In this document: positions 1 to 25,044 of the stretch, one piece after another
Layout: the number at the start of each line of letters is the position of its first letter
Position numbering within the stretch: position 1 is the first letter of the stretch
Source: Escherichia coli
Lineage (GTDB): Bacteria > Pseudomonadota > Gammaproteobacteria > Enterobacterales > Enterobacteriaceae
Reading direction: 5' to 3' (one strand)
DNA length: 64,000 bases
Assembly: GCF_013315695.1 (NCBI RefSeq)
Contig: NZ_CP054353.1
Translations under genes and position numbers: made by a program
Notes under the pieces: model-generated
Database searches by the model: none
Seen by the model: only the letters and a program-made list of their open reading frames with translations
What the model was told of the DNA's origin: nothing

Positions 1-138
1 GGTTTAAGTGCCGCTCAGGTTGACCGACTACGTGAGGAGTTTGGTGTTTACCTGATTACCAGCGGGCGCATGTGTGTCGCCGGGTTAAATACGGCAAATG
101 TACAACGTGTGGCAAAGGCGTTTGCTGCGGTGATGTAA
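1..138 (+). CDS. tyrB: Aromatic amino acid aminotransferase, 3' end (partial, runs off window start)
   Basis: Frame 1 from position 1 translates without stop to ...[23 protein letters not shown] and ends at TAA 136-138; matches the TyrB C-terminus by recall. Confidence 0.8.
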
Positions 139-148
139 TGCAGGAAAG

Positions 149-171
149 CAGGCTGGAGCTACCCAGCCTGC
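149..171 (+). terminator. Stem-loop downstream of tyrB (gcaggctgg...ccagcctgc); no clear U-tract
   Basis: 9-bp inverted repeat seen directly; the absence of a T-run makes it a weak intrinsic terminator call. Confidence 0.35.
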
Positions 172-360
172 AGTGAAATTAAACTGTCGTCGCTTTCACT
201 CTTGCTTTATAGATGATTTTTTTGATGCCATCGTTTTACGTGAGGGATAATAAAAGGTTGTCAGTTCTTTTATTGTTAAGTTTATCCCAATTATCTGGAA
301 TTCCTTTCCCTGTTTTTTCGTGTGGAGTAATAATTTTTGCACATCTAACCATTATTAAAT

Positions 361-903
361 TTAATAATAAGTATCGGGTTTGTTACGATAGAATATTTCT
401 ATATCCTCAAGAATATGCTTTGCCTTATTGCCTGTGACTTTCTGAGATTCAATTATAGTATCGTTAAATTCTAATGTTAAAGAGAACTCTTTTTTTCCGC
501 TTTGTGTAAGTTTAACCTTATATTGATTACCAATATCAAATAAAAAGGTCCTGTAATGAGAATAATCACCTTTAACCTCCTCGGCAAAACAGCAAAGTGT
601 GCAAATATACATACAATCTTTCTTGCCTCTGATTTTGTTAACTAAATCAATAAATGCATGAAAAACTGTACTTGCAATAGAACTTGATACTTCTTCTCCA
701 GGTCTACAAAAATCTTTTGCAATTTTTAACTGTGTTTCTATATATAAAAAGAAATCTTTGGCATAAGAAAAATCTTTGGAATAAGAGATATCTTTATTAT
801 TTAGTGCATCTAGCTCAACAGGTAAAGATGTCATTTTGTTGCTATTCACATATGATATATTCATATCATCATCTCCTTCGAGAGTAATAAAATTAGTCAC
901 CAT
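361..903 (-). CDS. Hypothetical protein (180 aa), AT-rich orphan ORF between tyrB and aphA
   Basis: Longest ORF in the 1.1-kb tyrB-aphA spacer; Lys/Asn/Ile/Phe-rich composition; no recognisable motif. May correspond to an extended form of the small K-12 gene at this position (recalled as yjbS), uncertain. Confidence 0.35.
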   Translation of the reverse strand: MVTNFITLEGDDDMNISYVNSNKMTSLPVELDALNNKDISYSKDFSYAKDFFLYIETQLKIAKDFCRPGEEVSSSIASTVFHAFIDLVNKIRGKKDCMYICTLCCFAEEVKGDYSHYRTFLFDIGNQYKVKLTQSGKKEFSLTLEFNDTIIESQKVTGNKAKHILEDIEIFYRNKPDTYY

Positions 904-1075
904 TGTAGGGTAGGGTTCTGGTCAACCAGAAATCATCTTTATAAACTTCGATTGTTTTTGTAATGCTGTATCATTAAGTTCATTAAATCGTACAGCAGAT
1001 AAATGTTCTATCAAATTTCGCTCATTTGCAGAGGATTCATCATAATAAACGTAAAATTAATGTATCCTTCATTGA

Positions 1076-1978
<903 letters not shown>

Positions 1979-1983
1979 CAGAG

Positions 1984-2020
1984 CGGGAGAGCGTGACACT
2001 CTCCCGAATGCTGTTTTTTT
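1984..2020 (+). terminator. Intrinsic terminator of aphA
   Basis: Hairpin gggagagcgtgacactctccc followed by ctgttttttt. Confidence 0.6.
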
Positions 2021-2899: not shown

Positions 2900-5722
2900 T
2901 TACAGCATCGGCTTGAGGAAGCGTGCCGTATGCGAAGCTTCGCACTCCGCGACGGTTTCTGGCGTACCGGAGACGAGGATCTCGCCGCCGCCACTGCCGC
3001 CTTCCGGTCCCAGGTCGACAATCCAGTCAGCGGTTTTGATCACGTCGAGATTGTGTTCAATCACCACAATGGTATTGCCCTGATCGCGCAGTTTATGCAG
3101 TACGTCGAGCAGTTGCTGAATATCGGCGAAGTGCAGACCGGTGGTCGGCTCGTCGAGAATATACAGTGTCTGCCCGGTGCCGCGTTTTGACAGCTCACGC
3201 GCCAGCTTCACGCGCTGGGCTTCACCGCCTGAAAGGGTGGTTGCGGACTGCCCCAGGCGAATGTACGTCAGGCCAACGTCCATCAACGTTTGCAGCTTAC
3301 GCGCCAGTGCAGGTACGGCATCAAAGAACTCACGCGCCTCTTCGATGGTCATATCCAGCACTTCGTGGATGGTTTTGCCTTTGTACTTAATTTCCAGCGT
3401 TTCACGGTTATAGCGTTTACCTTTACACTGGTCGCACGGTACGTAAATGTCCGGCAGGAAGTGCATCTCCACTTTGATCACGCCGTCGCCCTGACAGGCT
3501 TCGCAGCGTCCGCCACGGACGTTAAAGCTGAAACGTCCCGGCGTATAGCCGCGCGCACGGGATTCCGGTACGCCCGCAAACAGTTCGCGCACAGGCGTAA
3601 ACACGCCGGTATAGGTCGCTGGGTTAGAACGCGGAGTACGACCAATTGGGCTTTGGTCGATATCGATCACTTTATCGAAATGCTCCAGCCCCTGAATATC
3701 GCGATACGGTGCCGGTTCGGCGATGGTCGCACCATTCAACTGGCGTTGGGCAATCGGGAACAGTGTGTCGTTAATCAGTGTCGATTTACCGGAACCTGAA
3801 ACCCCTGTGATGCAGGTAAACAGACCGACTGGCAGCGTTAGCGTCACGTCTTTCAGGTTATTACCGCGTGCACCCGTCAGCTTCAGCACTTTTTCCGGAT
3901 TCGCCGGAACGCGTTTCTTCGGCACTTCAATCTTGCGTTTACCGCTCATGTACTGTCCGGTCAACGACTCCGGCACCGCCATAATCGCTTCCAGTGGACC
4001 TTCCGCGACCACTTCACCGCCGTGAACACCCGCACCAGGACCGATATCGATCACATGGTCAGCCGCGCGAATCGCGTCTTCGTCGTGCTCCACCACAATC
4101 ACGGTATTACCGAGATCGCGCAGATGGATAAGCGTACCCAACAGGCGCTCGTTATCGCGCTGGTGCAGGCCGATAGACGGCTCATCCAGCACGTACATAA
4201 CGCCAACCAGGCCCGCACCAATCTGGCTCGCCAGACGAATACGCTGGGCTTCACCGCCAGAAAGCGTTTCTGCCGAGCGGGAAAGCGTCAGGTAATTCAG
4301 GCCGACGTTAACGAGGAATTTCAAACGATCGCCGATCTCTTTAAGAATTTTTTCCGCAATCTTCGCCCGCTGACCTGCGAGTTTGAGATTGTTGAAGAAT
4401 TCCATCGCATGACCAATGCTCATGTCGGAAATGGCGGGCAGCGGCGTATTCTCGACATACACGTGGCGCGCTTCCCGACGCAGACGCGTCCCTTCGCAGC
4501 TGGCGCACGGGCGATTGCTGATGAACTTGGCTAATTCTTCGCGTACCGCGCTGGACTCCGTCTCTTTATAACGGCGCTCCATATTGTGCAGCACGCCTTC
4601 AAACGGATGACGACGAATGGAGGTATCGCCACGATCGTTCATGTATTTGAATTCAATGTTTTCTTTGCCAGAACCGTACAACACCACTTTATGCACGTTC
4701 GCGCTCAGGCTGCCCCACGGCGCTTCGACGTCGAACTTATAGTGATCTGCCAGCGATTTCAGCATCTGGAAATAATAGAAGTTGCGGCGATCCCAGCCAC
4801 GGATCGCACCGCCAGCCAGCGACAGTTCCGGATTCTGGATCACGCGGTCAGGATCGAAATATTGCTGTACGCCAAGGCCGTCGCAGGTCGGGCAGGCCCC
4901 CGCCGGGTTGTTAAACGAAAACAGTCGCGGCTCCAGCTCGCGCATACTGTAACCGCAAATTGGGCAGGCGAAGTTGGCGGAGAACAGCAGCTCTTCCGCT
5001 TTCGGGTCGTCCATATCCGCCACTACCGCGGTACCACCGGAAAGCTCTAGCGCGGTTTCAAACGACTCGGCCAGACGTTGGGTAAGATCGTCACGCACCT
5101 TGAAGCGATCAACCACCACTTCAATAGTGTGTTTCTTTTGCAGTTCCAGTTTCGGCGGATCGGAAAGATCGCAGACTTCGCCATCAATACGAGCACGGAT
5201 GTAACCCTGGCTTGCCAGGTTCTCCAGCGTTTTGGTGTGTTCGCCTTTGCGCTCTTTAATGATTGGCGCAAGCAGCATCAGACGCTTGCCTTCCGGCTGT
5301 GACAGCACGTTATCCACCATCTGGCTGACGGTTTGCGCCGCCAGCGGGACGTCGTGGTCCGGACAGCGCGGCTCGCCGACGCGGGCGAACAACAAACGCA
5401 AATAGTCGTGGATTTCGGTGATTGTCCCCACCGTAGAACGCGGGTTATGAGACGTTGATTTCTGCTCAATTGAGATGGCAGGAGAAAGCCCCTCAATATG
5501 ATCGACGTCCGGCTTTTCCATCAGTGACAGAAACTGCCGCGCGTAGGCGGAAAGGGATTCAACGTAACGGCGCTGCCCTTCGGCATATAAGGTGTCGAAA
5601 GCGAGCGAGGATTTGCCAGAACCCGAAAGCCCGGTCACGACAATGAGCTTGTCGCGGGGGATAACGAGGTTGATGTTTTTGAGATTATGGGTGCGGGCGC
5701 CCCGAACTTCGATCTTATCCAT
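2900..5722 (-). CDS. uvrA: Excinuclease ABC subunit A (940 aa)
   Basis: Two ABC ATPase modules (GLSGSGKSS and GVSGSGKST Walker A, LSGGE signatures) and zinc-finger Cys clusters ([25 protein letters not shown]); length 940 aa. Confidence 0.97.
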
Positions 5723-5976: not shown

Positions 5977-6513
5977 ATGGCCAGCAGAGGCGTAAACAAG
6001 GTTATTCTCGTTGGTAATCTGGGTCAGGACCCGGAAGTACGCTACATGCCAAATGGTGGCGCAGTTGCCAACATTACGCTGGCTACTTCCGAATCCTGGC
6101 GTGACAAAGCGACCGGCGAGATGAAAGAGCAGACTGAATGGCACCGCGTTGTGCTGTTCGGCAAACTGGCAGAAGTAGCCAGCGAATATCTGCGTAAAGG
6201 TTCTCAGGTTTATATCGAAGGTCAGCTGCGTACCCGCAAATGGACCGATCAATCCGGTCAGGATCGCTACACCACAGAAGTCGTGGTGAACGTTGGCGGC
6301 ACCATGCAGATGCTGGGTGGTCGTCAGGGTGGTGGCGCTCCGGCAGGTGGCAATATCGGTGGTGGTCAGCCGCAGGGTGGTTGGGGTCAGCCTCAGCAGC
6401 CGCAGGGTGGCAATCAGTTCAGCGGCGGCGCGCAGTCTCGCCCGCAGCAGTCCGCTCCGGCAGCGCCGTCTAACGAGCCGCCGATGGACTTTGATGACGA
6501 TATTCCGTTCTAG
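5977..6513 (+). CDS. ssb: Single-stranded DNA-binding protein (178 aa)
   Basis: [32 protein letters not shown]... OB-fold N-terminus, Gly/Gln/Pro-rich linker, acidic tip DFDDDIPF. Confidence 0.97.
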
Positions 6514-6551
6514 AGTTAACTTGTGAGTTATTTGTAAAGAATCCATACGCA

Positions 6552-6580
6552 GGCCCCTGTTAATTCAGGGGTTTTTTGTT
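6552..6580 (+). terminator. Intrinsic terminator of ssb
   Basis: Hairpin caggcccctg-ttaattc-aggggttttttg. Confidence 0.7.
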
Positions 6581-6650
6581 TCTATCGTCGGAAAAAGTGT
6601 CTTGTATAAATTGGTGATTTTTCACATAAAGTGTACCTTGTAATTGTGTA

Positions 6651-7919
6651 ATGTTTATGGGGTGTGAGTGCATGGAAAAGAACTACAGAGTTACAACATT
6701 TGTCATGGATAGTGGCGAGCGCTATTGCATGGTAGTGGATCGTGCTTCTGGGCTTCCCATGTATTACCCCACTCTGTTTCTAACAACTCAAATCCGCAAT
6801 AGAGAGGATGCTTTTTCAACGATGTTGGCGGCGGCTAACAACCTGGTTATGTTGTTACGCTTTGTAGAGAGTCGCGACATTGACCTTGAGCAGCGGTTTT
6901 TGACCAAAGACTTCTTCAAGCCACATGAGCTGGATGATCTGCGAGATTTTGCTCAGTGCAAACAAAGAAAGGGGCCATTAACTGTGTCCTCTACCTCTTG
7001 GTTGGCCGATGCGATGACCGATATCGTTGATAACGGGACACAGCATTCCCGGCTAACAACGTTTGCCAACTATTTACACTGGTATGCGATGCATATCTTA
7101 AAGACGACAGAACTGGAAGTTGTCGAAAAGATCAATGCTATGGCGGCGCAGATAAAGACGCGCCGACCATCTAAAAAGCGCAGAAACCACGACTTACAAG
7201 ACAGGTCATTGAGTGATGTTCAATTGGACGCGCTATTTGAAGTCATCCAGCCTAGATCAGAGTTAAACCCTTTCTCAATAGATGTGCAGCGCCGCAATCG
7301 GCTGATGATCTTACTTCTGTTTTATCTTGGCATCCGAGGTGGTGAATTATTAAATATAAGAATACAGGACATAGATTTTAGCGCTAACAGGATCCGTATC
7401 GTTAGGAGAGCAGATGAACAAGCTGACTCTAGAACCAATGAGCCTAATGCTAAAACTAGAGAACGGCTCTTACCGTTGGCTGAATCCTTAGCTCAAGAAC
7501 TGCATAGTTATATCCTTCAAGATCGCCGGAAAGTCAGAAATGCGAAGAAAAATGACTATCTGTTTGTAACTTACAAGAGTGGACCAACTCTGGGAAATCC
7601 TATCTCCAAAGGGGGATATCATAAAATTTTTTCCGTAGTCAGGTCTATATCACCGCAATTGTATGCAGCGACAGGACATTCGCTCCGCCACACTTGGAAT
7701 CGCAAGTTTTCAGAAAGAATGGATGCCATGAATGAGCAAGTCAGCGAGGAACGCCAAGAGCAACTTCGTTCGTACTTAATGGGCTGGAGAGATGGCTCGG
7801 GAACCGCAGCGACTTACAACAAGCGTTTCATTCGGCAAAAAGGTTTTGAGGCCGCCTTGGCATTACAAGCAGGTAACGGCACTAGCTTGCCAGAGGACTT
7901 CAAGGATGACCATGAATAA
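6651..7919 (+). CDS. Tyrosine recombinase 1 of trio (integrase family, 422 aa; start may be the internal Met at 6672)
   Basis: Catalytic signature seen in translation: ...GIRGGELLNI... (Arg), HSLRHTW (His-x-x-Arg), LMGWRDGSGTAATYNKRF (Tyr nucleophile). Confidence 0.8.
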   Translation: MFMGCECMEKNYRVTTFVMDSGERYCMVVDRASGLPMYYPTLFLTTQIRNREDAFSTMLAAANNLVMLLRFVESRDIDLEQRFLTKDFFKPHELDDLRDFAQCKQRKGPLTVSSTSWLADAMTDIVDNGTQHSRLTTFANYLHWYAMHILKTTELEVVEKINAMAAQIKTRRPSKKRRNHDLQDRSLSDVQLDALFEVIQPRSELNPFSIDVQRRNRLMILLLFYLGIRGGELLNIRIQDIDFSANRIRIVRRADEQADSRTNEPNAKTRERLLPLAESLAQELHSYILQDRRKVRNAKKNDYLFVTYKSGPTLGNPISKGGYHKIFSVVRSISPQLYAATGHSLRHTWNRKFSERMDAMNEQVSEERQEQLRSYLMGWRDGSGTAATYNKRFIRQKGFEAALALQAGNGTSLPEDFKDDHE

Positions 7920-9444
7920 CCTCTTACTTGGGTTAGTACCAGAACGAATCCGTGCCAGGGCCAATGGCTACTCTTTTCTGTTGTATGACACATCGTGGAC
8001 ATTGGATAGAAATATCACTATTAATCTTGCTGATATTCACCATTACTTGTCAGATGGGACGCTAGATGGCTGCCTGCGTACACTGGCGTTTTATGCATCC
8101 AATCGTTCTTCTTCTCATACAAAAAATATTCTTGAACGGTTTCAGCACATGCTGCGTGAGACTGACGCGAGAGAAATTACTGATACGGTATTGATTAATT
8201 ATCGGTCGATGCTGTCGCCTGCAACAGAATGGTATCTAGCAACCATCCGTGGCTTTCTTCGATCCTGGCACGAACTGGGCTATCCCGGCATCAGTAAGGA
8301 GGTGAACCGCTTGCTAGATGGCTGGACGCTAAAGGGTAATCGTAAGGGGGATGCGGTTAAGCGCATGGATCCTCAAGAGGGGCCACTGACGGATAATGAG
8401 CTGACAGCGTTTAACGAGGGGGCTGTTCGGGCTTATGAAAAGAGCTTAATTACTATAGCTGAGTTGGCTATAGCACTTGGCACCAGTCATACAGGACGTC
8501 GTCCCATTCAGATCTCGCTGCTTCGTGTGGTCGATGTCCTTTGTGGTAAAAATGGAAAGGGAGAGCCCTTCTATGTGTTGAATGTGCCGCGAGCCAAGCA
8601 GCGCAGCAGCTCTTTCCGAATAAACTTCAAACCATTTGCAATATCACTGGAACTATGGGCAATCCTGAGTGCTCAGGCAAGAAATGCGATTGCGCAGGTT
8701 GAAAATCGTTTGGGGTTTGAATTGCAGGAAGATGACCGGCAGCAAATCCCTCTTTTTCCTGATCTTGATGTGTTAGATGCCGTCCAATCTCCTTATGAAT
8801 TCCGCCAACTGCATGCTACCGACAAACTCCACATTCCCGCCGCAGAGATAACCGACACCCTCCAATACATCGTAGAAAAGTCCGACATCCGGTCGGAACG
8901 TACCGGTGAGCTATTACATATCAATGCTCGTCGTTTTCGTTATACCACAGGCACACGAGCTGCCCGGGAAGGCTTTGGCGAGCTGGTGATTGCGGAACTG
9001 CTTGACCACGCGGACACCCAAAACGCAGGCGTTTACATCAAGAATATCCCCGAGCATGTGAAAAAGCTTGATGAGGCGGTTGGCTTCCAATTAGCACCAT
9101 ACGCTCAGGCCTTTGTCGGGGCACTTGTCGATTCAGAGAGAGACGCGCATCGAGGTAACGACCCTACCAGTCGTATTCGGACCGAAATGGGTCAGGGTGT
9201 TGGTACTTGTGGAGAACATGGCTTTTGTGGTGCCAATGTTCCTATTCCTTGCTACACCTGCATGCATTTCCAGCCTTGGCTGGACGGCCCACATGAAGAT
9301 GTCTATCAAGGACTGCTCAACGAACGTGAACGGGTGAAAGAGATAACTGGCGACATCCAGATTGCTGCCGTACTTGATCGCAGTATTATCGCGCTGGCAG
9401 ATGTGATCATGCGTTGTGCAAAACGTCGTGAAGAGCTTAGTTAA
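7906..9444 (+). CDS. Tyrosine recombinase 2 of trio (about 513 aa)
   Basis: C-terminal region with RRFRYTTGTRAAREG and LLDHADTQNAGVYI (R/H...Y pattern); ATG at 7906 or 7912 overlaps the upstream stop at 7917-7919. The ORF-track start at 7792 is rejected as an overlap artefact. Confidence 0.75.
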   Translation: MTMNNLLLGLVPERIRARANGYSFLLYDTSWTLDRNITINLADIHHYLSDGTLDGCLRTLAFYASNRSSSHTKNILERFQHMLRETDAREITDTVLINYRSMLSPATEWYLATIRGFLRSWHELGYPGISKEVNRLLDGWTLKGNRKGDAVKRMDPQEGPLTDNELTAFNEGAVRAYEKSLITIAELAIALGTSHTGRRPIQISLLRVVDVLCGKNGKGEPFYVLNVPRAKQRSSSFRINFKPFAISLELWAILSAQARNAIAQVENRLGFELQEDDRQQIPLFPDLDVLDAVQSPYEFRQLHATDKLHIPAAEITDTLQYIVEKSDIRSERTGELLHINARRFRYTTGTRAAREGFGELVIAELLDHADTQNAGVYIKNIPEHVKKLDEAVGFQLAPYAQAFVGALVDSERDAHRGNDPTSRIRTEMGQGVGTCGEHGFCGANVPIPCYTCMHFQPWLDGPHEDVYQGLLNERERVKEITGDIQIAAVLDRSIIALADVIMRCAKRREELS

Positions 9445-9460
9445 CAGGGAGCAATAACCA

Positions 9461-11494
9461 ATGGCTGAGATTTTCCTGTTTAAGCCAAAGGCTACGCTGA
9501 CAGCAGCAGAAAACCTTGAAGCATTCATATCCCAGTGCCGAGATCAATTGACTGTATTCGGCTCTGATCTCACTTGGGAAGATCCTGTTTGGCCAAACAT
9601 AACTGTATTTGCCAAGTTGGGCATTATTACGAGAAAACCCATACTGGAAGAGACGCAAGACCCTGCTTTCATTGATTTTGCCAAAGCCTATTTCCGTTAC
9701 CAGCAGGGGCATAGCCTCTCTAGGGCAAAGAATGAAAGTAAAGCCCTCCGTGCGGTTGAGGCGGCTTTGCTTCAAGTAAATGGAAACGCAAATATTGATG
9801 GCCTGTCGATTTCTGTGCTGGATGAAGCAGCTGAATTGGCAAAGCATTACTACTCCGATGGCTCCGCATATCATTGTGGCCGTGAGATTGAGCGGCTGGC
9901 TAAGTTTGTAGCTGAAAACCAGCTTGTATCAAGTGCTGTACAAAATTGGGTCAATCCAATTAAACGTGCAGAGGATAAGAACAAAACGAGCAGAAAGGCG
10001 AAGAAAAATAGGGAAGATAAACTTCCGAGTGATATTGCTCTTAATGCGTTGGCGGAAATTTTTGCCAACGACCCAATTCATGAGCGAGACATATTTACAA
10101 CATCGGTTTTTGCCATGTTGATGTCGGCACCTTCACGTATTACTGAGGTGTTAGCACTGCCTGTGGATTGCGAGGTTTTTGAAACGGATCGTGAAGGGAT
10201 AGAACGATATGGTTGGCGTTTTTTTGCGGGGAAAGGCTATGAGGGTGATATCAAATGGATACCCACCGTGATGGTCGGTATAGCTAAGACAGCCGTAGCT
10301 AGAGCTAGAGTGCTCTCTGAAAATGCACGACAACTGGCCAAGTGGATCGAGAAACACCCGAATAAGTTTTACCGCCATGCTAACTGTCCCAGTGTAGCCG
10401 ATGATGAGCCATTGACGATGAAGCAGGTTTGTATGGCGCTCGGTTTTGCACATTACTCTAAAAAGACGTGCAGGTCGTGTCTTGGTAATCGAGGTTTAGC
10501 TAAAGAGGATGGTGTACATACTCTAAATAGCCTGTGGCAGCACACAATGGCGCGTTTACCGGATGGCTTTCCGTGGTTTGATAAAGACAAGGGAATTAGG
10601 TACAGCAATGCCTTGTTTGTACTGAACGTAAATCAGTTCCACGGGAACAGAGGATGCATACCAGTTGAGTTACATAAGCCAACCAATAATTTCTTCAACA
10701 GTGATCTGACGCCTCGTCTGTCCTTGAAAGGAAAACATGCCAGTATCTTTGATCGCCATGGTTACCATGCTGTAAACGGAGAGCCGGTGAAATTAACCTC
10801 ACATCAGGCTCGACACCTGCTCAACACCATTATCCAGCGCGGTGGCCTGTCAAACTTGGAAATTGCCAAGTGGTCGGGGCGGGCAGATGTGAAACAGAAT
10901 CGAACTTACAACCACATGACTGAATACGAACTGGTTGGCATTGCTGAACGCCTTGATCCCACAACAGCGCTATTTGGGCCTGCTGGCGAGGTGGCAAAGC
11001 ATCTGCCCGTGACTATGCAGGAGTTCAATACCTTAGAGCATGCCGCAGTCCATGTGACGGAGTATGGCTACTGTGTGCATGATTACACCATGAGTCCTTG
11101 TGAGAAATTCCGAGATTGCGTCAATTGTACCGAACAGGTTTGCATCAAAGGCGATGATGCTGAAAAGTTGGATCGCATTAAGATACGTCTGGAGAAATTA
11201 GAGCGACTGTTTTTTCTTGCTGACGCAGCAGTGGAAAGTGGTGAGATAGGAACTGATCGCTGGTATCAGTACCACAAGAAAACTGTTACCCGGCTTCGTG
11301 AACTAGTGGCTATTTTAGAGAATCCAGACATTGAAAATGGTGTCCAGATTAAGCTCCGGGGCAATGATTTCAGCCAGCTTCGCCGTGTTGTCGCAAAGAC
11401 GTCTATTGTGGCCATCGAGCAAAAAGGCAAAGAAAGTGAAGAAGCTGTGATGTTAGATGATTTGACAACTTTGTTAGGAGGTGGCCTTGGCTAA
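9461..11494 (+). CDS. Tyrosine recombinase 3 of trio (677 aa)
   Basis: LTSHQARHLLNT (H-x-x-R-H) and WSGRADVKQNRTYNHM (Tyr) motifs; RBS-like cagggag 8 nt upstream of ATG. Confidence 0.75.
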   Translation: MAEIFLFKPKATLTAAENLEAFISQCRDQLTVFGSDLTWEDPVWPNITVFAKLGIITRKPILEETQDPAFIDFAKAYFRYQQGHSLSRAKNESKALRAVEAALLQVNGNANIDGLSISVLDEAAELAKHYYSDGSAYHCGREIERLAKFVAENQLVSSAVQNWVNPIKRAEDKNKTSRKAKKNREDKLPSDIALNALAEIFANDPIHERDIFTTSVFAMLMSAPSRITEVLALPVDCEVFETDREGIERYGWRFFAGKGYEGDIKWIPTVMVGIAKTAVARARVLSENARQLAKWIEKHPNKFYRHANCPSVADDEPLTMKQVCMALGFAHYSKKTCRSCLGNRGLAKEDGVHTLNSLWQHTMARLPDGFPWFDKDKGIRYSNALFVLNVNQFHGNRGCIPVELHKPTNNFFNSDLTPRLSLKGKHASIFDRHGYHAVNGEPVKLTSHQARHLLNTIIQRGGLSNLEIAKWSGRADVKQNRTYNHMTEYELVGIAERLDPTTALFGPAGEVAKHLPVTMQEFNTLEHAAVHVTEYGYCVHDYTMSPCEKFRDCVNCTEQVCIKGDDAEKLDRIKIRLEKLERLFFLADAAVESGEIGTDRWYQYHKKTVTRLRELVAILENPDIENGVQIKLRGNDFSQLRRVVAKTSIVAIEQKGKESEEAVMLDDLTTLLGGGLG

Positions 11495-11906
11495 GCATCT
11501 GGACAATAGAGACATTAACGCCATCGTAAATCTAATTCGAGGATGGAAGGAACCAAAACTGTCCTGGTCAGCAATTTGTGAGGCGGCAGAACCATTGGTC
11601 GGAAAGTTGCCGTCAAGACAGTCCCTTAATGCACATGAGGCAATAGTGACTGCCTATCAAACAAAGAAAGAGGCGCTTAAAGGCCGTGGCCCCAAAAATC
11701 CGCGTCCAGCTAGTTTGAACATTGCAGCCGCGAGGATTGTGAATCTTGAAAGCGAAATCGAAGAGCTTAAGGAAGAGAACCGGAGGTACAAACAACAGTT
11801 TGTGATCTGGCAATACAATGCATACAAATATGGAATGACAGAACATCAACTTAATGCGCAGCTGACAAAGATTGACCGTGAGCGCTCTGATGGAGAAAGA
11901 AGATAG
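11481..11906 (+). CDS. Small protein (about 140 aa) coupled to recombinase 3; possible ginD-like accessory factor
   Basis: ORF overlaps the 3' end of recombinase 3 (GTG 11481 or TTG 11487 just after aggagg); C-terminal half has coiled-coil character (LESEIEELKEENRRYKQQ). Function not recognisable. Confidence 0.5.
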   Translation: MALAKHLDNRDINAIVNLIRGWKEPKLSWSAICEAAEPLVGKLPSRQSLNAHEAIVTAYQTKKEALKGRGPKNPRPASLNIAAARIVNLESEIEELKEENRRYKQQFVIWQYNAYKYGMTEHQLNAQLTKIDRERSDGERR

Positions 11907-11981
11907 TTGCTGAGTACGATATCGAGGGTACATTTCTCTGTGTAGGGGTAGTTATTTACAAAAAAATAGGAGAATAATTAA

Positions 11982-14900
11982 ATGGTCAAACCAAACTGGG
12001 ATAACTTTAAAGCTAAATTTAGTGAGAATCCTCAAGGTAATTTTGAGTGGTTTTGCTACTTGTTGTTCTGTCAAGAATTCAAAATGCCCGCAGGTATATT
12101 TAGATATAAGAATCAATCTGGTATCGAAACTAATCCAATAACCAAAGATAATGAAATTATCGGTTGGCAATCTAAATTCTATGACACAAAATTGTCGGAT
12201 AACAAAGCTGATCTTATAGAAATGATTGAGAAAAGCAAAAAGGCTTATCCAGGATTAAGTAAAATCATTTTCTATACTAATCAAGAGTGGGGGCAGGGGA
12301 GAAAGTCCCATGAACCTGAAGGCGATAAGAACGCTGATAATTATTTGGAAACTGTCGGAAATAGTAACGATCCCAAAATAAAAATTGAAGTTGATCAGAA
12401 AGCATATGAGTCGGGTATCGAAATAGTATGGAGAGTTGCTAGTTTTTTTGAATCACCGTTTGTAATAGTTGAGAATGAAAAGATTGCTAAACATTTCTTC
12501 TCCCTTAATGAAAGCATCTTTGATTTATTAGAAGAAAAGCGCAAGCACACAGAAAATGTTTTATATGAAATTCAAACCAATATAGAGTTCAAAGACAGAA
12601 GTATTGAAATTGACAGACGACATTGTATAGAACTTCTACATGAGAATCTAGTTCAGAAAAAAATTGTCATCGTCAGCGGAGAAGGTGGGGTTGGAAAAAC
12701 AGCAGTTATCAAAAAAATTTATGAAGCAGAAAAACAATACACTCCTTTCTATGTCTTTAAGGCTAGCGAGTTTAAAAAGGACAGTATTAATGAGCTATTC
12801 GGTGCGCATGGCTTAGACGATTTCTCTAATGCTCATCAAGACGAATTACGTAAAGTCATAGTCGTAGATTCTGCTGAAAAGCTTTTAGAACTGACCAATA
12901 TCGATCCTTTTAAAGAATTCCTGACTGTTTTAATAAAGGATAAATGGCAGGTTGTTTTCACAACCCGTAACAACTACTTGGCAGATCTGAACTATGCTTT
13001 CATAGATATTTATAATATAACTCCTGGAAACTTAGTAATAAAGAACCTTGAACGCGGCGAGCTAATAGAGTTATCTGATAACAATGGATTTAGCCTTCCT
13101 CAAGATGTTCGATTATTAGAACTAATCAAAAATCCATTTTATCTAAGTGAATATTTGAGGTTCTATACCGGTGAAAGCATCGATTATGTGAGCTTCAAAG
13201 AAAAGCTTTGGAATAAGATTATTGTCAAAAATAAACCTTCTCGGGAGCAGTGTTTCTTAGCGACTGCTTTTCAGCGGGCTAGTGAGGGCCAATTTTTTGT
13301 CTCCCCGGCATGTGATACTGGAATTTTAGATGAGTTAGTTAAAGACGGAATTGTCGGCTATGAAGCTGCTGGTTACTTCATTACACATGATATATACGAG
13401 GAATGGGCATTAGAAAAGAAAATTTCTGTCGATTATATCCGTAAAGCGAACAATAACGAGTTCTTCGAAAAAATAGGAGAATCACTTCCTGTTCGCCGTA
13501 GTTTTCGGAATTGGATATCTGAACGATTGCTTTTAGATGACCAGTCCATAAAGCCTTTTATCGCAGAAATAGTCTGTGGAGAAGGAATATCAAATTTTTG
13601 GAAAGACGAGTTATGGGTAGCTGTCCTTCTTTCCGATAATTCAAGCATATTTTTTAATTACTTTAAAAGATATTTACTTAGTAGTGACCAGAATCTATTA
13701 AAAAGACTTACTTTCTTATTGAGGCTTGCTTGCAAGGACGTTGATTACGATCTGCTTAAACAGTTAGGTGTAAGTAATTCAGATCTGCTTTCCATTAAAT
13801 ATGTTCTTACTAAGCCTAAGGGAACTGGTTGGCAGAGTGTGATCCAATTTATCTATGAAAATTTAGATGAAATAGGGATCAGAAATATTAATTTTATACT
13901 TCCTGTGATTCAGGAGTGGAATCAAAGAAACAAAGTGGGTGAAACGACTCGATTATCTAGTTTGATAGCCCTAAAATATTATCAATGGACTGTAGATGAG
14001 GATGTCTATTTATCCGGAAGGGATAATGAGAAAAATATTCTGCATACGATTCTTCATGGGGCGGCCATGATTAAACCTGAAATGGAAGAGGTTTTAGTTA
14101 AGGTTCTTAAAAATAGGTGGAACGAGCACGGTACCCCATATTTCGACCTTATGACCTTAATCCTTACTGACTTAGATTCATATCCGGTTTGGGCATCTCT
14201 CCCGGAATATGTTCTACAATTGGCAGATCTGTTCTGGTATCGGCCACTTAAAGAAACAGGCGAACGTTATCACAGTATGGATATTGAAGATGAGTTCGGT
14301 CTATTTAGGTCTCATCACGACTATTATCCAGAAAGTCCATATCAGACTCCTATATATTGGTTACTACAATCACAGTTCAAAAAAACAATAGACTTTATTC
14401 TTGATTTTACGAACAAGACAACGATATGTTTTGCCCACTCCCATTTTGCTAAAAACGAAATTGAAGAAGTCGATGTCTTTATTGAAGAAGGAAAGTTTAT
14501 AAAGCAATATATATGCAATCGTCTGTGGTGCTCATATCGAGGAACACAGGTCTCTACCTACTTACTTTCATCAATTCATATGGCATTGGAAAAATTTTTT
14601 CTTGAGAATTTTAAAAATGCAGACTCGAAAGTGTTGGAAAGTTGGCTTCTTTTCTTGTTAAGAAATACCAAGTCAGCTTCTATTTCTGCAGTAGTTACGA
14701 GTATTGTACTTGCATTCCCTGAGAAGACATTCAATGTAGCTAAAGTACTATTCCAAACAAAGGATTTCTTCCGTTTTGATATGAATCGAATGGTTCTAGA
14801 CAGAACACATAAAAGTTCATTAATCTCCCTCAGGGATGGCTTTGGCGGTACAGATTACAGAAACTCTTTGCACGAAGAAGATAGAATTAAAGCTTGCGAT

Positions 14901-16745
14901 GATGTGCATAGAAATACTTATCTTGAAAATCTTGCCTTGCATTATCAAATTTTCAGGAGTGAAAATGTAACGGAGAAAGATGTCATTGAAAGGCAACAAG
15001 TGCTCTGGGGTATTTTCGATAAATACTATAATCAGCTTCCAGATGAAGCTCAAGAAACTGAAGCCGATAAGACGTGGAGGCTCTGCTTGGCAAGAATGGA
15101 TCGGCGAAAGATGAAAATAACTACCAAGGAGAAAGATGAAGGGATTGAGATATCATTCAATCCTGAGATTGACCCTAAACTAAAGCAATATAGTGAGGAA
15201 GCAATAAAGAAAAACTCCGAGCATATGAAGTATGTAACGCTGAAACTATGGGCAAGCTATAAAAGAGAAAAGGATGAACGTTATAAGAATTATGGAATGT
15301 ATGAGGACAATCCGCAAATTGCTTTACAAGAGACCAAAGAAATAATAAAAAAGCTTAATGAGGAAGGGGGTGAAGATTTCAGACTATTAAATGGTAATAT
15401 ACCAGCAGACGTTTGTTCTGTATTACTGTTAGATTACTTTAATCAGTTGAATAATGAAGAGAGAGAATATTGTAAAGATATTGTTCTAGCATATTCTCAA
15501 CTTCCGTTGAAGGAAGGCTATAATTATCAGGTACAAGATGGGACAACCTCGGCAATTTCAGCCTTACCCGTGATTTATCATAATTATCCAATGGAAAGGG
15601 AGACTATAAAAACAATATTACTTTTGACACTGTTTAATGACCACTCTATTGGAATGGCAGGTGGGCGCTACTCAGTATTTCCTAGTATGGTGATTCATAA
15701 ATTATGGCTAGACTATTTTGATGATATGCAGTCTCTATTGTTTGGTTTTTTGATTTTAAAGCCAAAGTATGTAATTCTTTCAAGAAAAATCATTCATGAA
15801 AGTTATCGTCAAGTAGACTATGACATTAAAAAAATAAATATTAATAAGGTGTTTTTAAATAACTATAAGCATTGCATATCAAATGTCATCGATAATAAAA
15901 TATCTATAGATGATTTGGGAAGTATAGATATAGTTGATCTACATATTTTGAACACAGCTTTCCAATTAATTCCAGTTGATACTGTTAATATTGAACATAA
16001 GCAATTGGTTTCCTTAATTGTTAAAAGATTTTCTACAAGCCTATTGTCAAGTGTTCGAGAAGATAGAGTTGATTACGCTCTTCGGCAGTCTTTCTTGGAA
16101 AGATTTGCCTACTTTACGCTTCATGCGCCCGTGAGCGATATTCCCGATTATATAAAACCTTTTCTTGATGGTTTCAACGGTTCAGAGCCTATTTCAGAGT
16201 TATTTAAAAAATTTATTCTCGTCGAAGATAGATTAAATACTTACGCCAAATTTTGGAAGGTTTGGGATTTGTTTTTTGATAAAGTGGTTACTTTGTGCAA
16301 GGATGGAGATAGGTATTGGTATGTAGATAAAATTATAAAAAGTTACCTTTTTGCTGAATCTCCATGGAAAGAAAACTCTAATGGTTGGCACACATTTAAA
16401 GATAGCAATAGTCAATTCTTTTGCGATGTATCTAGGACTATGGGCCATTGCCCTTCAACTTTATATTCTCTTGCCAAATCTTTGAATAACATTGCCAGTT
16501 GCTATCTTAATCAAGGTATAACCTGGCTTTCAGAAATGTTGTCGGTTAATAAAAAGCTATGGGAAAAGAAATTGGAAAATGATACTGTTTATTTTTTAGA
16601 ATGTTTGGTTAGGCGGTATATTAACACTGAGCGTGAGCGAATTAGACGAACCAAACAGTTGAAAGAAGAGGTCTTAGTAATATTGGATTTTTTGGTAGAG
16701 AAAGGATCTGTTGTTGGTTATATGTCACGGGAAAATATTCTGTGA
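11982..16745 (+). CDS. Large STAND-type P-loop NTPase (1587 aa): N-terminal unknown domain (about 1-220), NTPase core (about 225-330), about 1250-aa helical C-terminal region; candidate anti-phage (Avs-like) protein
   Basis: Strong RBS (aggag, 9-nt spacer). Walker A GEGGVGKT (aa 233-240), Walker B VIVVDSAE (aa 292-299), TTR motif in QVVFTTRN (aa 323-330) typical of STAND NTPases. Very AT-rich codon usage; no transmembrane or secretion signals noticed. Confidence 0.8.
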   Translation: MVKPNWDNFKAKFSENPQGNFEWFCYLLFCQEFKMPAGIFRYKNQSGIETNPITKDNEIIGWQSKFYDTKLSDNKADLIEMIEKSKKAYPGLSKIIFYTNQEWGQGRKSHEPEGDKNADNYLETVGNSNDPKIKIEVDQKAYESGIEIVWRVASFFESPFVIVENEKIAKHFFSLNESIFDLLEEKRKHTENVLYEIQTNIEFKDRSIEIDRRHCIELLHENLVQKKIVIVSGEGGVGKTAVIKKIYEAEKQYTPFYVFKASEFKKDSINELFGAHGLDDFSNAHQDELRKVIVVDSAEKLLELTNIDPFKEFLTVLIKDKWQVVFTTRNNYLADLNYAFIDIYNITPGNLVIKNLERGELIELSDNNGFSLPQDVRLLELIKNPFYLSEYLRFYTGESIDYVSFKEKLWNKIIVKNKPSREQCFLATAFQRASEGQFFVSPACDTGILDELVKDGIVGYEAAGYFITHDIYEEWALEKKISVDYIRKANNNEFFEKIGESLPVRRSFRNWISERLLLDDQSIKPFIAEIVCGEGISNFWKDELWVAVLLSDNSSIFFNYFKRYLLSSDQNLLKRLTFLLRLACKDVDYDLLKQLGVSNSDLLSIKYVLTKPKGTGWQSVIQFIYENLDEIGIRNINFILPVIQEWNQRNKVGETTRLSSLIALKYYQWTVDEDVYLSGRDNEKNILHTILHGAAMIKPEMEEVLVKVLKNRWNEHGTPYFDLMTLILTDLDSYPVWASLPEYVLQLADLFWYRPLKETGERYHSMDIEDEFGLFRSHHDYYPESPYQTPIYWLLQSQFKKTIDFILDFTNKTTICFAHSHFAKNEIEEVDVFIEEGKFIKQYICNRLWCSYRGTQVSTYLLSSIHMALEKFFLENFKNADSKVLESWLLFLLRNTKSASISAVVTSIVLAFPEKTFNVAKVLFQTKDFFRFDMNRMVLDRTHKSSLISLRDGFGGTDYRNSLHEEDRIKACDDVHRNTYLENLALHYQIFRSENVTEKDVIERQQVLWGIFDKYYNQLPDEAQETEADKTWRLCLARMDRRKMKITTKEKDEGIEISFNPEIDPKLKQYSEEAIKKNSEHMKYVTLKLWASYKREKDERYKNYGMYEDNPQIALQETKEIIKKLNEEGGEDFRLLNGNIPADVCSVLLLDYFNQLNNEEREYCKDIVLAYSQLPLKEGYNYQVQDGTTSAISALPVIYHNYPMERETIKTILLLTLFNDHSIGMAGGRYSVFPSMVIHKLWLDYFDDMQSLLFGFLILKPKYVILSRKIIHESYRQVDYDIKKININKVFLNNYKHCISNVIDNKISIDDLGSIDIVDLHILNTAFQLIPVDTVNIEHKQLVSLIVKRFSTSLLSSVREDRVDYALRQSFLERFAYFTLHAPVSDIPDYIKPFLDGFNGSEPISELFKKFILVEDRLNTYAKFWKVWDLFFDKVVTLCKDGDRYWYVDKIIKSYLFAESPWKENSNGWHTFKDSNSQFFCDVSRTMGHCPSTLYSLAKSLNNIASCYLNQGITWLSEMLSVNKKLWEKKLENDTVYFLECLVRRYINTERERIRRTKQLKEEVLVILDFLVEKGSVVGYMSRENIL

Positions 16746-16790
16746 TGTAGTTGAAAATAATAATTTTAATGAGAGCTTTTCCAATTTAGG

Positions 16791-16815
16791 CTCCAGGGAT
16801 TGGAGCCTTTTTATT
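16791..16815 (+). terminator. Intrinsic terminator after the large NTPase gene
   Basis: Hairpin ggctccaggg-a-ttggagcc followed by tttttatt. Confidence 0.6.
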
Positions 16816-16840
16816 ATCGAAAAGATTAATATCTTATAAG

Positions 16841-17059
16841 TCAATCAGTAAAACGCAGCAAAGCTCGTTGCTCTTGAATGTTCACTCCGTGATAAATTCT
16901 TTGATTACCACATAAATAACAAGAACAAGCACAAGGGGTGCAGTAAATTTTCCCTACAACTTTTTCAGTTTTAGCCAACGCAATTCGATATGTTTTTCTC
17001 TTAGATTTTAACCGAGATATATGATGACGACGCCATGCCCGATTTCTAACCATTTCCAT
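16841..17059 (-). CDS. Small basic Cys-rich hypothetical protein (72 aa)
   Basis: ORF with GGAG-type RBS; Arg/Lys-rich N-terminus and a CTPCACSCYLCG cysteine cluster (possible zinc ribbon). No family recognised. Confidence 0.3.
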   Translation of the reverse strand: MEMVRNRAWRRHHISRLKSKRKTYRIALAKTEKVVGKIYCTPCACSCYLCGNQRIYHGVNIQEQRALLRFTD

Positions 17060-17283
17060 TCACTCCAATTTTCTACCGCGGTGTTATACCGCGCCCGTAT
17101 CAATCTTTGGAGTTCGATATCGATCTGACCTTTCATGAATACCTCGGAATTTATCAATAAAGTGAGTGCTATATCATAGCTTATGGGATGAAAGTTTGAT
17201 ATTTAGCACTTTTCAGCTTTAGGTAAAGCTGTCCTCAATAAAGCTAATTTCTTGTTTATTAATGGAATTTCTATGTGGAAGTG

Positions 17284-18105
17284 TTAGAAATCCTGTTTTA
17301 CTTTATCCATCGTTAAAACTTTACTTATTATATAAGGATCATAATTTCTTATACTCATAAGGCAATTTATCAAATTGGAAACGTGGCTATCATCAGGTAT
17401 AAGTATATATTTAATATCATCGAAAGAAAAACCAATGCCAAATTCAGAGAATTTTTTACTTAAGACGGCCTTCTGGTTAGGTTCCACCACTCGCTCTAAA
17501 TTTAGGCTAGGCCATAAATCGCCAACAAACGGATGCGGTACATATCTCCATTCTTTTTCGTCAGCGTAGATATAATTCTCAATGGTTTTTTCGTTCGTCC
17601 TTTCTAATTTCCCTTTATAATTTTTCATATAGCGTAATAAATTATAAAGGTCAGCGTACTCTTCTTTAAGGCTTTCAAAATACTTACGCTCTTTATTATC
17701 AAGGATATGCCTTTTCGACCATAGCGGAATTAACGCATCCTTTAGTTTTCTAATTCTTTTATTATACTTTGAAAATAATTCACTGCCTTGATTCATGTAT
17801 AGAACGGGATGGAGATCATTTTTCTCAGCCCATTCTTTTGTTAACCCAAATCCAAATTCACCATATTTTCCACTATGATCTTTAATCTGAGAAAGCTTGA
17901 TGTCACAGAATGAAACCATTGGTACTGCGAAATTTCTTCTTCCTTTTACTCCGACTATGCGTTCACGGGCAAGAAATGGTTTAAAATAGAGTTCTGTTAA
18001 AATGCTATAGAATGCCTCTTCATTTTTAGTAAAGTGAAACAACGTTGTTGGATGTAAACTATTAACTGCTTGTATAACTGTTTCTTGGTTTTCTATAGCA
18101 CTCAT
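17284..18105 (-). CDS. AbiGi-like abortive-infection family protein (273 aa)
   Basis: N-terminal LFHFTKNEEAFYSILTE... resembles, by recall, the FHFT-type N-terminus of AbiGi-family proteins; AT-rich; convergent with the NTPase gene. Confidence 0.55.
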   Translation of the reverse strand: MSAIENQETVIQAVNSLHPTTLFHFTKNEEAFYSILTELYFKPFLARERIVGVKGRRNFAVPMVSFCDIKLSQIKDHSGKYGEFGFGLTKEWAEKNDLHPVLYMNQGSELFSKYNKRIRKLKDALIPLWSKRHILDNKERKYFESLKEEYADLYNLLRYMKNYKGKLERTNEKTIENYIYADEKEWRYVPHPFVGDLWPSLNLERVVEPNQKAVLSKKFSEFGIGFSFDDIKYILIPDDSHVSNLINCLMSIRNYDPYIISKVLTMDKVKQDF

Positions 18106-18483
18106 ATATTAACTGTTCCATAGTGTAAAACCTGACTTAGCAAAGGTTATCATACTAGTCTTTGTACTGTAAGCACACTTGGTTTAATTCCACGCACTTT
18201 TTGAGATTTCCGGTTTTTTGATCTCTTACCAAAATCTATGCCAGATTGAATCAAAGGTCCGAGCTGGGTCACCAAAAAAAGTAAAATTATGCACTTTGAT
18301 AGATTATATTTTAACTAAATTCTTTACAGTTAAATCATTTCTTATGCCTTAGTTTCTGATAAAAAAGGTTTTTTTTCACGATTTATAAGTATCAGGTTAT
18401 GTGAACCGTTCTGATTTGTCGTTAAAACAATAGGTTATATTGTTTTAAGGTGGATGATTAAAGCATCTGCCAGCCATAAAAAA

Positions 18484-18506
18484 GAAGCCTCCGTTTTGGA
18501 GGCTTC
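18484..18506 (-). terminator. Terminator downstream of yjcB (backbone)
   Basis: Hairpin gaagcctccg-ttt-tggaggcttc with an A-run on the plus strand (U-run on the minus strand), immediately after the yjcB stop. Confidence 0.5.
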
Positions 18507-18512
18507 TACATA

Positions 18513-18794
18513 TCAAGTCAAAATCATTGGCCATTGTGGCGGTGTCTGATTCATCTCTTCTATCATCACCGACTCGATGTTGTGCCAGATGGCGGTGATA
18601 TCCGCCATTGTGATGCCAAGCAACCCCATTGCGAACCAGCAGGCAGAAACCACGCCCAGACCGCTGCTGATCACTGCAAGCCCGACATAATCAGACCGAC
18701 GAAAACGGATGTTGAGTGTGCTGGCCAGAAACATCATTACGGCACTAAGAAGTTGCCAGCGAAGAAGAACCACGCCAGTGGTGAGGGTAGCCAT
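18513..18794 (-). CDS. yjcB: Small inner-membrane protein YjcB (93 aa)
   Basis: Hydrophobic ORF MATLTTGVVLLRWQLL...; position after ssb as in K-12. The ORF track extends to 18893, but a 93-aa product starting at the internal Met is expected. Confidence 0.8.
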   Translation of the reverse strand: MATLTTGVVLLRWQLLSAVMMFLASTLNIRFRRSDYVGLAVISSGLGVVSACWFAMGLLGITMADITAIWHNIESVMIEEMNQTPPQWPMILT

Positions 18795-19223
18795 CAAACA
18801 ATTCCTCTGAAAAGAGCCGATGCCTCGGACAGCGCGGCGTTGTTCACGGGAGGCGTGATACAATCTGGCTATCGCGGGGCTTGCAGAACACAAAAAAGAA
18901 ACACTCTGTTTGTTTCATTAATTTTGTGAACTATATCACAATTGATTGTTTGTTAGCCAGATTAGGCCGTGACTTTTATTGCCGTACAGATTATGTGTTT
19001 TTTCAGCGGCATTAAGGGTATATCTTCCCACCGCCTCTGCATTCCTGTAGGAAATTAGTTTTGAATATCAATGAATTATTTTTATTCAGGTGACGATTAA
19101 AAAGGTATCAATTTCAAATCAGGCAAAAGTGCTATTTATACCGTAAGATTTATCTAAAGACGTCGATAACCAGGGTTCTCGCCTTGCAATGACCGGGTAT
19201 AAACAAGCAGGAAATTGATAGCA

Positions 19224-23618: not shown

Positions 23619-25044
23619 TAATGCCAGTCAGTTAAGCAACTGACTGGCTCTTTTTCGGGGCTGTGGGGTATTTCCAGGGCCTCTCCTTTACCACTCTCGG
23701 GAAGGCCCTTTCCCTTCTTGTCGGTAATTTCACAAGTTGTCCCATACTTGCAAGATCGCGCATCAGCTCCGGTATACGTCCCGGTGAAGCGCCCTGCAAT
23801 GTCATCAGCATTCTCATCACCATTCCGCATGATTCTGAGAAACTCAGTTGATTCGGCCAGTAACCTTTCAGATGTTCCGCCATTTTAATCATCTGATATC
23901 TCACCAGATTATAAGCCAGTAAGACACCCCACAGCTCTTGCTCCACAAGCTCCGGTTTTTTACTTCTCAGCGTCAGCCTGCTCAGTTGCATCGTCTGTTT
24001 TATCTCCCTGTATCCCAGTTCGATTTCCCAGCGATGACTGTACAGATCCGCCATTTCTCCTCCGGGGAAGCGCATGGCGTCCGTCATCGACGTCAGCAGA
24101 TGGCAGACTTTTCCTTTGCGCGTCACGGTCAGCAGGCGGGCTGTCACTTCATTTCCCAGTCCCGGCCACTTTTTTCGTGCCTGCGGGCTGGTTTTCAGCT
24201 TCACCAGATGATCGCCTTTACCCAGTTTTCTGATCTCTTCATATTGCGCTCCCTTTCTGAGAGGTATCATCCAGTGGCGGTGTTCTCCCGCCAGGCTCCA
24301 GGCATTTAACAGTCCCAGTGAGTAATAACCTTTATCCATTAACGTCAGAGTGTTATCGCCGGTTTGTTCTATAAGTTGCTCAGCAAGCTCATTTTCGCTG
24401 TTCTTCATCGTGCCGAAGGCTGCAGCCGTCAGCAGATGGCTGGTCAGTTCCATCTGGCAGACCATTTTGACCTGCGGGTAGAGCGCCGGGTTCCCGGCAT
24501 GTGTCTGGCGGGGGAAGGCTGCATCGTTCTCTGGTGTATCCGGTGTGCGCCAGAACACACCATCGATGGCCAGCAGGGTCAGGCCGCACCAGTGCGGATG
24601 CGGCGTGGCGTTATGCCAGAGCTGCGCTGTTTTCGTGAACACGCGGCGGACAGCCTCACTTCCCAGGCGCTGGCGGGCCTGAATAACGGCACTGGGGGCA
24701 ACGAAGGGGCGATTGCCCGGCAGCATGATGTCCAGGCGATTCACAATCTGGTGAAGAGGTTCTTTACGCTCAAGCGCCATGCCAACAATACACCAGACCA
24801 TCATTTCGAGGGGAAGACGGCGCTTGCGTAGCGTTACAGTACCTGATTCGGCAAGGCAACGAGAGATGAGTTCGGGGTCGAGGTAATCCCCCAGAGAAGT
24901 CAGTGGGTTACGCAGAGAATCGTAACGGGATACCAGATCAAGAGCCTGTCCAATGTGCATAAAAAAATCCGGAAACAAGTGAGCGTTTCCGGATTCTTAC
25001 ACAGCCACTGGATCGGTCAACTGATCCTTAACTGATCGGCATTA
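23619..25044 (-). mobile_element. Insertion sequence IS4, complete (1426 bp)
   Basis: Terminal inverted repeats TAATGCCAGTCAGTTAAG (left) and CTTAACTGATCGGCATTA (right, 16/18 match); length 1426 bp equals canonical IS4; single transposase ORF. Confidence 0.9.
23632..24978 (-). CDS. insG: IS4 transposase (DDE family, 448-aa ORF)
   Basis: ORF fills the IS; translation recognised as IS4 transposase by recall. Confidence 0.88.

Follow-up and report, generated by a model that had tools for sequence, protein, structure and literature searches.

The gene at positions 11982..16745 (+) of the Escherichia coli DNA analyzed here (64,000 nucleotides of contig NZ_CP054353.1, assembly GCF_013315695.1, hereafter the window, to whose first letter all positions refer) almost certainly encodes Avs4 (AVAST type 4), a single-gene anti-phage system, and, as judged by sequence comparison, is an allele of the characterized EcAvs4. 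An earlier note, made from the letters alone, had flagged the product as a candidate novel anti-phage sensor-effector. That note recognized the class of the protein correctly, but its claim of novelty was false. Avs4 has already been discovered, its mechanism has been dissected, its structure has been solved (8DGF, released 2022), and it is covered both by curated hidden Markov models and by automatic RefSeq annotation. AVAST systems are said to have been discovered and defined by Gao et al. in Science in 2020, and a further report by Gao et al. in Science in 2022 reportedly described terminase and portal recognition as well as the EcAvs4 structure.

Assignment of the protein to Avs4

The coding sequence starts with an ATG and continues unbroken for 1587 codons and a stop (4764 nt), and PADLOC, NCBIfam, the Protein Data Bank (PDB) and RefSeq agree on it; the intact giant open reading frame of STAND type described in the earlier note, with its product of 1587 amino acids (aa), is indeed there. 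A Shine-Dalgarno sequence, AGGAG, can be read at 11968..11972 (+), 9 nt 5′ of the avs4 ATG. At 16788..16808 (+), 43 nt past the stop, lies a terminator-like hairpin with a 9-bp stem (5 GC pairs) and then a T-run (TTTTATTAT); this hairpin is kept 3′ of avs4 in strain E8. The very AT-rich composition remarked on previously was also confirmed, with a GC content of 34.9% in the gene versus ∼54% in the core genome flanking the island that carries it.

In PADLOC, which had been proposed as a check, the protein matched the Avs4 model PDLC02169 with 2361 bits over aa 1–1587, and it matched no other PADLOC defense model. The NCBIfam equivalog NF041815 (“AVAST type 4 anti-phage nuclease Avs4”), which has a curated cut-off of 1500 bits, was matched with 2065.9 bits, with aa 5–1587 aligned to model positions 1–1579. 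When the whole protein was used in a sequence search of the PDB, the single match was chain A of 8DGF, “ATP-binding protein Avs4,” which is also 1587 aa long. The two proteins are colinear from end to end, with 99.2% identity, 13 substitutions and 0 gaps. The 8DGF entry bears the title “Avs4 bound to phage PhiV-1 portal,” and RefSeq labels the same DNA “avs4: AVAST type 4 anti-phage nuclease Avs4.” Because the protein is near-identical to the solved EcAvs4, lies above the equivalog cut-off and is already annotated in RefSeq, it is not a novel candidate. The broader proposal that it is of Avs/AVAST type, with an effector, a STAND NTPase and a sensor in that order, agrees with the full-length matches to the Avs4 models, and we found no evidence to contradict the Avs4 assignment.

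Domain organization, allelic variation and predicted mechanism

The STAND NTPase core, placed by motif positions, conservation in homologues and weak Pfam matches, spans approximately aa 212–361 (12615..13064, +). The Walker A motif GEGGVGKT, whose lysine is K239, lies at aa 233–240 as had been claimed, and the claimed string QVVFTTRN, found at aa 323–330, contains the sensor-1 TTR at aa 327–329 (R329). The Walker B string VIVVDSAEK is present too, but the end assigned to it was off by one residue: it occupies aa 292–300 and not 292–299, and the motif proper covers 292–297 with the aspartate D296. We aligned the window protein with 74 full-length homologues (1400–1700 aa, 25–61% identical) over their first 520 aa, and in this 75-sequence alignment K239 is kept in 71 sequences, D296 in 72 and R329 in 68. 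Absence of the motifs on such an alignment would, according to the earlier note, have refuted its finding; they are present in the window protein and conserved across the 74 homologues, which indicates that they are not chance matches. A Pfam search with the first 1200 aa of the window protein returned only sub-threshold matches to nSTAND1, nSTAND3 and NB-ARC, all of the P-loop/STAND kind, and none within aa 1–200. Given that the curated models for Avs4 cover the whole protein, these low scores are no argument against the assignment.

The N-terminal effector (aa 1–215; 11982..12626, +) had been described as an unassigned and possibly uncharacterized domain. This description could not be upheld: conservation, Pfam matches of relatives, a structural model and fold comparison all identify it as an Mrr-like PD-(D/E)xK nuclease domain. 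A query with aa 1–215 against 1.84 billion representative proteins returned 571 relatives. Most of the complete ones are 1500–1660 aa long, so that the domain is all but confined to proteins of Avs4 architecture. In an alignment of 42 such domains (36–62% identical), W6, F9, F21, F29, E49, Q63, K65 and F173 are invariant, and E22 is conserved in 40. The stretch KDNEIIGWQSK, which spans aa 55–65, had been given a tentative PD-(D/E)xK reading. The QSK part of that reading stands, with Q63 and K65 invariant, but the implied acidic residue D56 does not, being an aspartate in only 14 of the 42 domains; the invariant acidic residue is E49. A minor gain of the present analysis is thus that the conserved nuclease residues of Avs4 are pinned as E22, E49 and Q63-x-K65, and not D56.

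Taken individually, 8 of the 42 family members matched the restriction endonuclease family Mrr_cat_2 in Pfam at E ≤ 0.1, the best with 1.7e-4. An AlphaFold2 model built from the N-terminal alignment had a mean predicted local distance difference test score (pLDDT) of 87.9 and a predicted template modeling score (pTM) of 0.77, with low confidence only at a lineage-specific insert at approximately aa 105–130. Every match in the fold comparison was a PD-(D/E)xK enzyme, and the best ones bear Mrr-type nuclease domains; it took this comparison to reveal the nuclease family, which sequence-only PDB searches had missed. In the signature of the Mrr family the acidic residue of motif III is replaced by glutamine (Q-x-K) and is accompanied by a motif I glutamate (PMC2790908), and here this signature corresponds to Q63-x-K65 and E22. 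The 14 residues separating E49 from Q63 equal the spacing of D78 and Q92 in LlaGI.

The rest of the NOD and the long helical C-terminal sensor take up approximately aa 362–1587 (13065..16742, +), a region that is colinear with 8DGF_A and whose domain limits are approximate. From this colinearity, and from the ∼99% identity to a chain solved together with the PhiV-1 portal, we infer that the sensor binds phage portal protein. The 13 differences from 8DGF_A are N345K, V671I, N714K, V1001A, G1010D, Q1173K, I1315M, I1317K, Q1341K, M1519I, F1538Y, T1549N and E1562Q. In strain E8 the Avs4 allele (positions 14432–19192 of the E8 locus, compared with 11982–16742 of the window) is 96% identical to that of the window (1525/1587), and it has the residue of PDB 8DGF at several of the positions at which the window varies (K345, I671, A1001, D1010, K1173 and K1317). 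This pattern points to a mosaic of natural alleles and not to random drift.

The Avs4 assignment nevertheless comes with caveats. Pfam gave no match for aa 1–215 of the window protein searched alone. Canonical Mrr motif II contains an absolutely conserved aspartate, D74 in LlaGI (PMC2790908), and judging from spacing its equivalent here would be Q45, so that the active site would follow a variant Mrr pattern. Furthermore, 10 of the 13 substitutions fall within aa 1001–1562, in the C-terminal region, and owing to them the range of portals targeted by the window allele could differ. The silence of Pfam on the N-terminal domain, and the fact that sequence-only PDB searches with this domain, whether as a single sequence or as a profile, retrieved nothing besides Avs4 itself, would suit a novel STAND sensor-effector with an uncharacterized N-terminal effector distinct from the known Avs families. 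We nevertheless assign that alternative next to no probability: the curated Avs4 models match the full length, identity to a solved and published protein is 99.2%, a PD-(D/E)xK fold is predicted for the N-terminal domain, which carries the Q-x-K motif of Mrr type, and RefSeq already gives the gene the name avs4.

A second alternative, that the window contains a decaying or inactive copy of avs4 in which defense has been lost, appears highly improbable. It could draw on the 13 substitutions relative to the characterized protein and on the interruption of avs4 by insertion sequences (IS) in some strains, such as that by IS903B in NZ_CP116094.1. However, the 4764-nt reading frame of the window is intact and has a ribosome-binding site and a terminator, the catalytic and NTP-binding residues are all present, and other natural alleles also have several of the ‘variant’ residues. 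Moreover, identical DNA (100%) recurs in unrelated strains, on chromosomes as well as plasmids. The avs4 gene was found in 358 of 5426 complete E. coli genomes; among the 373 matching records 361 were at least 99% identical, and 25 copies were plasmid-borne.

For the mechanism of Avs4 we relied on later open-access papers that cite the primary Avs work and on the title of the 8DGF entry. Avs proteins are described as built of an N-terminal effector that varies, an NTPase in the middle and a long C-terminal sensor, and Avs4 is described as activated by phage portal proteins, its tetramers switching on the N-terminal nucleases (PMC11897194). A preprint likewise presents EcAvs4 as a portal sensor in which tetramerization of the ATPase domains gathers the N-termini, so that the nuclease domains tetramerize and become active (bioRxiv 10.64898/2026.04.30.721860). 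According to a third paper, oligomerization of Avs4 requires ATP but not ATP hydrolysis, and related effectors of Mrr type degrade host as well as phage DNA (PMC12236752).

On this basis, the long helical C-terminal sensor would bind portal protein when a tailed phage infects the cell, and this binding would allow the ATP-bound STAND NTPase module to assemble as a tetramer. The tetramer would bring together, and thereby activate, four N-terminal Mrr-like PD-(D/E)xK nuclease domains. Once active, the nucleases would degrade double-stranded DNA indiscriminately, so that phage replication would be stopped and the infected cell sacrificed. Portal sensing, an ATP-dependent tetramer, DNA cleavage and protection are thus the properties reported for EcAvs4 that the window allele would share, on the strength of the 99.2% identity between the two.

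The carrier island at ssb and its other cargo

The avs4 gene is carried by a genomic island of ∼11.9 kb (6505..18412, +), delimited by comparison with the empty site of K-12 and by a duplicated CCGTTCT, whose architecture and target fit a GInt-type element. Genes in the window are ordered aphA-yjbQ-uvrA-ssb ... yjcB-pdeC-soxS-soxR-ghxP. In K-12, yjcB directly follows ssb, while in the window ∼11.9 kb are inserted at the last ssb codons. We read the junctions by eye, K-12 against the window. The K-12 sequence ...ATTCCGTTCTGATTTGTC... is split by the island, and CCGTTCT is found at both 6505–6511 and 18406–18412; behind the first copy comes a TAG stop supplied by the island, and behind the second come the original TGA and then the spacer known from K-12. 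CCGTTCT codes for the end of the C-terminal tail of SSB, DDDIPF, which is unchanged by the insertion. The location on a mobile island suggested in the earlier note is therefore well founded, resting on the empty site in K-12, the duplicated CCGTTCT and a second insertion on a plasmid, described below.

The 5′ end of the island is occupied by a four-gene recombination module resembling ginABCD (6672..11906, +; gene starts as in RefSeq). Its first gene encodes a tyrosine recombinase (6672–7919, +) and its second a site-specific integrase (7906–9444, +) that matches NF041502 with 677 bits. The third (9461–11494, +) encodes a large recombinase-fold protein of 677 aa with a faint Phage_integrase match (E 0.55), and the fourth (11487–11906, +) a small protein of 139 aa (∼140); both are hypothetical proteins in RefSeq. 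Neither of these last two genes had an NCBIfam, PADLOC or significant Pfam match; compared by description, their products fit what has been published of GinC, which has a recombinase fold without the catalytic motif, and of GinD. After these four co-oriented genes the island continues with avs4, a 72-aa open reading frame, a convergent AbiGi-family gene and an AT-rich end.

In GInts, cargo follows a 5′ ginABCD operon and the 3′ end is AT-rich; these elements prefer the end of ssb, whose product they leave unaltered (PMC5385486). They have been reported in 7.5% of Escherichia replicons (PMC10214605), in line with the presence of the recombination module in 379 of 5426 E. coli genomes. We therefore named the carrier a GInt-type element by its architecture and ssb target, having compared it with the Pseudomonas GinABCD by description. 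It resembles the GInt islands of Bardaji et al. 2017 (PMC5385486) in its 5′ module of two tyrosine recombinases, a large recombinase-fold protein and a small protein, in the cargo and AT-rich 3′ end that follow, and in its insertion at the end of ssb between short flanking direct repeats without a change in SSB. It differs in having a duplicated core of 7 bp where imperfect repeats of 10–17 nt have been reported, and the cargo of the window island consists of defense genes. Other element classes were considered. A GMT element, defined by the trio GmtY, GmtZ and GmtX, was rejected: the first recombinase scored 17 bits against recomb_GmtY, for which the cut-off is 340, and the other genes had no match. 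RIT and SE elements were set aside because the gene order (two recombinases, a large non-catalytic protein and a small protein) and the ssb target fit a GInt better.

This element is also found, with an identical left junction, behind ssb in the leading region of the 82-kb plasmid NZ_LR898876.1 (ssb ... parB-like, psiB, psiA), where the junctions lie at 3490–3560 and ∼15349–15480 of the locus. The plasmid attR keeps the plasmid’s own TAA stop, and this copy therefore arose by a separate integration event, in another ssb gene. Since it targets the end of ssb, the element can occupy chromosomes and plasmids alike, the plasmid in this case being of conjugative type, and this targeting accounts for the spread of avs4 in ∼7% of E. 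coli genomes. The identification of the carrier as a GInt-type element aimed at the universally conserved ssb end, on chromosomes and plasmids, is a further minor gain.

Insertion sequences have hit the island in several strains (comparison locus L001, 5182–6395; matches H8, which is NZ_CP116094.1, H36, H37 and H40). IS3-family insertions break the second recombinase gene, and in one strain, NZ_CP116094.1, the IS903B element mentioned above splits avs4. These hits suggest that in some lineages the island is being immobilized and the defense gene lost.

A gene of the AbiGi family, encoding 273 aa (17284..18105, −), lies convergent with avs4. The earlier note had counted this adjacent Abi-like gene as support for a defense role. 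Its family membership holds (PADLOC AbiGi, 1.6e-44; phrog_13416, 3e-98), although against NCBIfam AbiGI it scored 45 bits where the cut-off is 300, and the RefSeq family name is ‘abortive infection system antitoxin AbiGi.’ As evidence for a joint system it failed. No AbiGii partner was found by PADLOC or among the open reading frames near the gene, those adjoining it being of at most 72 aa; it is an orphan and not part of a two-gene AbiG system of AbiGi plus AbiGii. In strain N32 the AbiGi-like gene is a pseudogene with an internal stop, next to an avs4 that is 100% identical, and at three distant avs4 loci in other organisms the neighbors are unrelated and include no AbiGi-like gene. For these reasons we rejected the gene as a partner of Avs4 and regard it as separate cargo of the same island, outside the Avs4 system.

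Between avs4 and the AbiGi-like gene lies an unannotated 72-aa open reading frame (16841–17059, −) whose product is basic and Cys-rich (CTPCACSCYLCGN). It matches the phage family phrog_4499, a function-unassigned family, with E 5.7e-16. The frame is also intact in strain E8, which has a diverged island (gin module 86% identical), and it shows just 4 nucleotide differences there, all nonsynonymous. One could imagine a single functional unit made up of Avs4, its convergent AbiGi-like neighbor and perhaps the 72-aa frame, in which the neighbor acts, for example, as a modulator or antidote. The two genes do stand together in both E. coli island lineages, that of the copies at least 99% identical and that of strain E8, and the RefSeq family name calls AbiGi an ‘antitoxin.’ Yet hitch-hiking would be expected to keep them together in a single island lineage, the two genes are convergent with a terminator between them, and Avs4 is handled in the literature as a single-gene system. 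Together with the internal stop beside an identical avs4 in N32 and the lack of a related neighbor at the three distant loci, this makes a functional unit very unlikely, and we retain a single-gene Avs4 system with the AbiGi-like gene as fellow cargo.

Three further suggestions may be made, which even taken jointly we regard as unlikely: the 13 substitutions may shift which portals the allele recognizes; or the AbiGi-like gene and the 72-aa frame may form an accessory or second defense module that cooperates with Avs4; or the GInt-type element on the plasmid may put a defense gene where anti-defense genes usually sit.

Outside the island, the start of the window (1–2000), upstream of aphA, has a low GC content (39.9%) and holds an open reading frame of 180 aa at 361–903 (−). 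Downstream of ghxP, a 448-aa open reading frame at 23632–24978 (−) resembles IS4-family transposases; strain N32 lacks it at the corresponding site and has yjcE next after ghxP.

Comparison with known systems

With Mrr-family nuclease domains, known from Type ISP and Type IV enzymes (LlaGI/LlaBIII, AspBHI, MspJI and Mrr), the predicted effector of the window protein can be compared at motif II, which reads N44-Q45-x-x-I-E49 here and D-x-x-x-D in those enzymes. In addition, the Avs4 domain shares its polypeptide with a STAND NTPase and would be activated by oligomerization, whereas the Mrr-family restriction enzymes are activated by translocation or by reading DNA modification. SeAvs3, and Avs1–3 in general, are likewise tripartite (effector, STAND NTPase, sensor) and have an N-terminal nuclease that is activated via tetramerization. 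In contrast to Avs4, they sense the large terminase subunit and not the portal, and in PADLOC the window protein matched no model but that of Avs4. The closest known system is EcAvs4 itself (PDB 8DGF, NF041815, PADLOC Avs4), also from E. coli, which shares with the window protein its length of 1587 aa, a gapless alignment at 99.2% identity, and the succession of Mrr-like nuclease, STAND NTPase and C-terminal sensor; the window allele differs from it by the 13 substitutions given above, 10 of them within aa 1001–1562.

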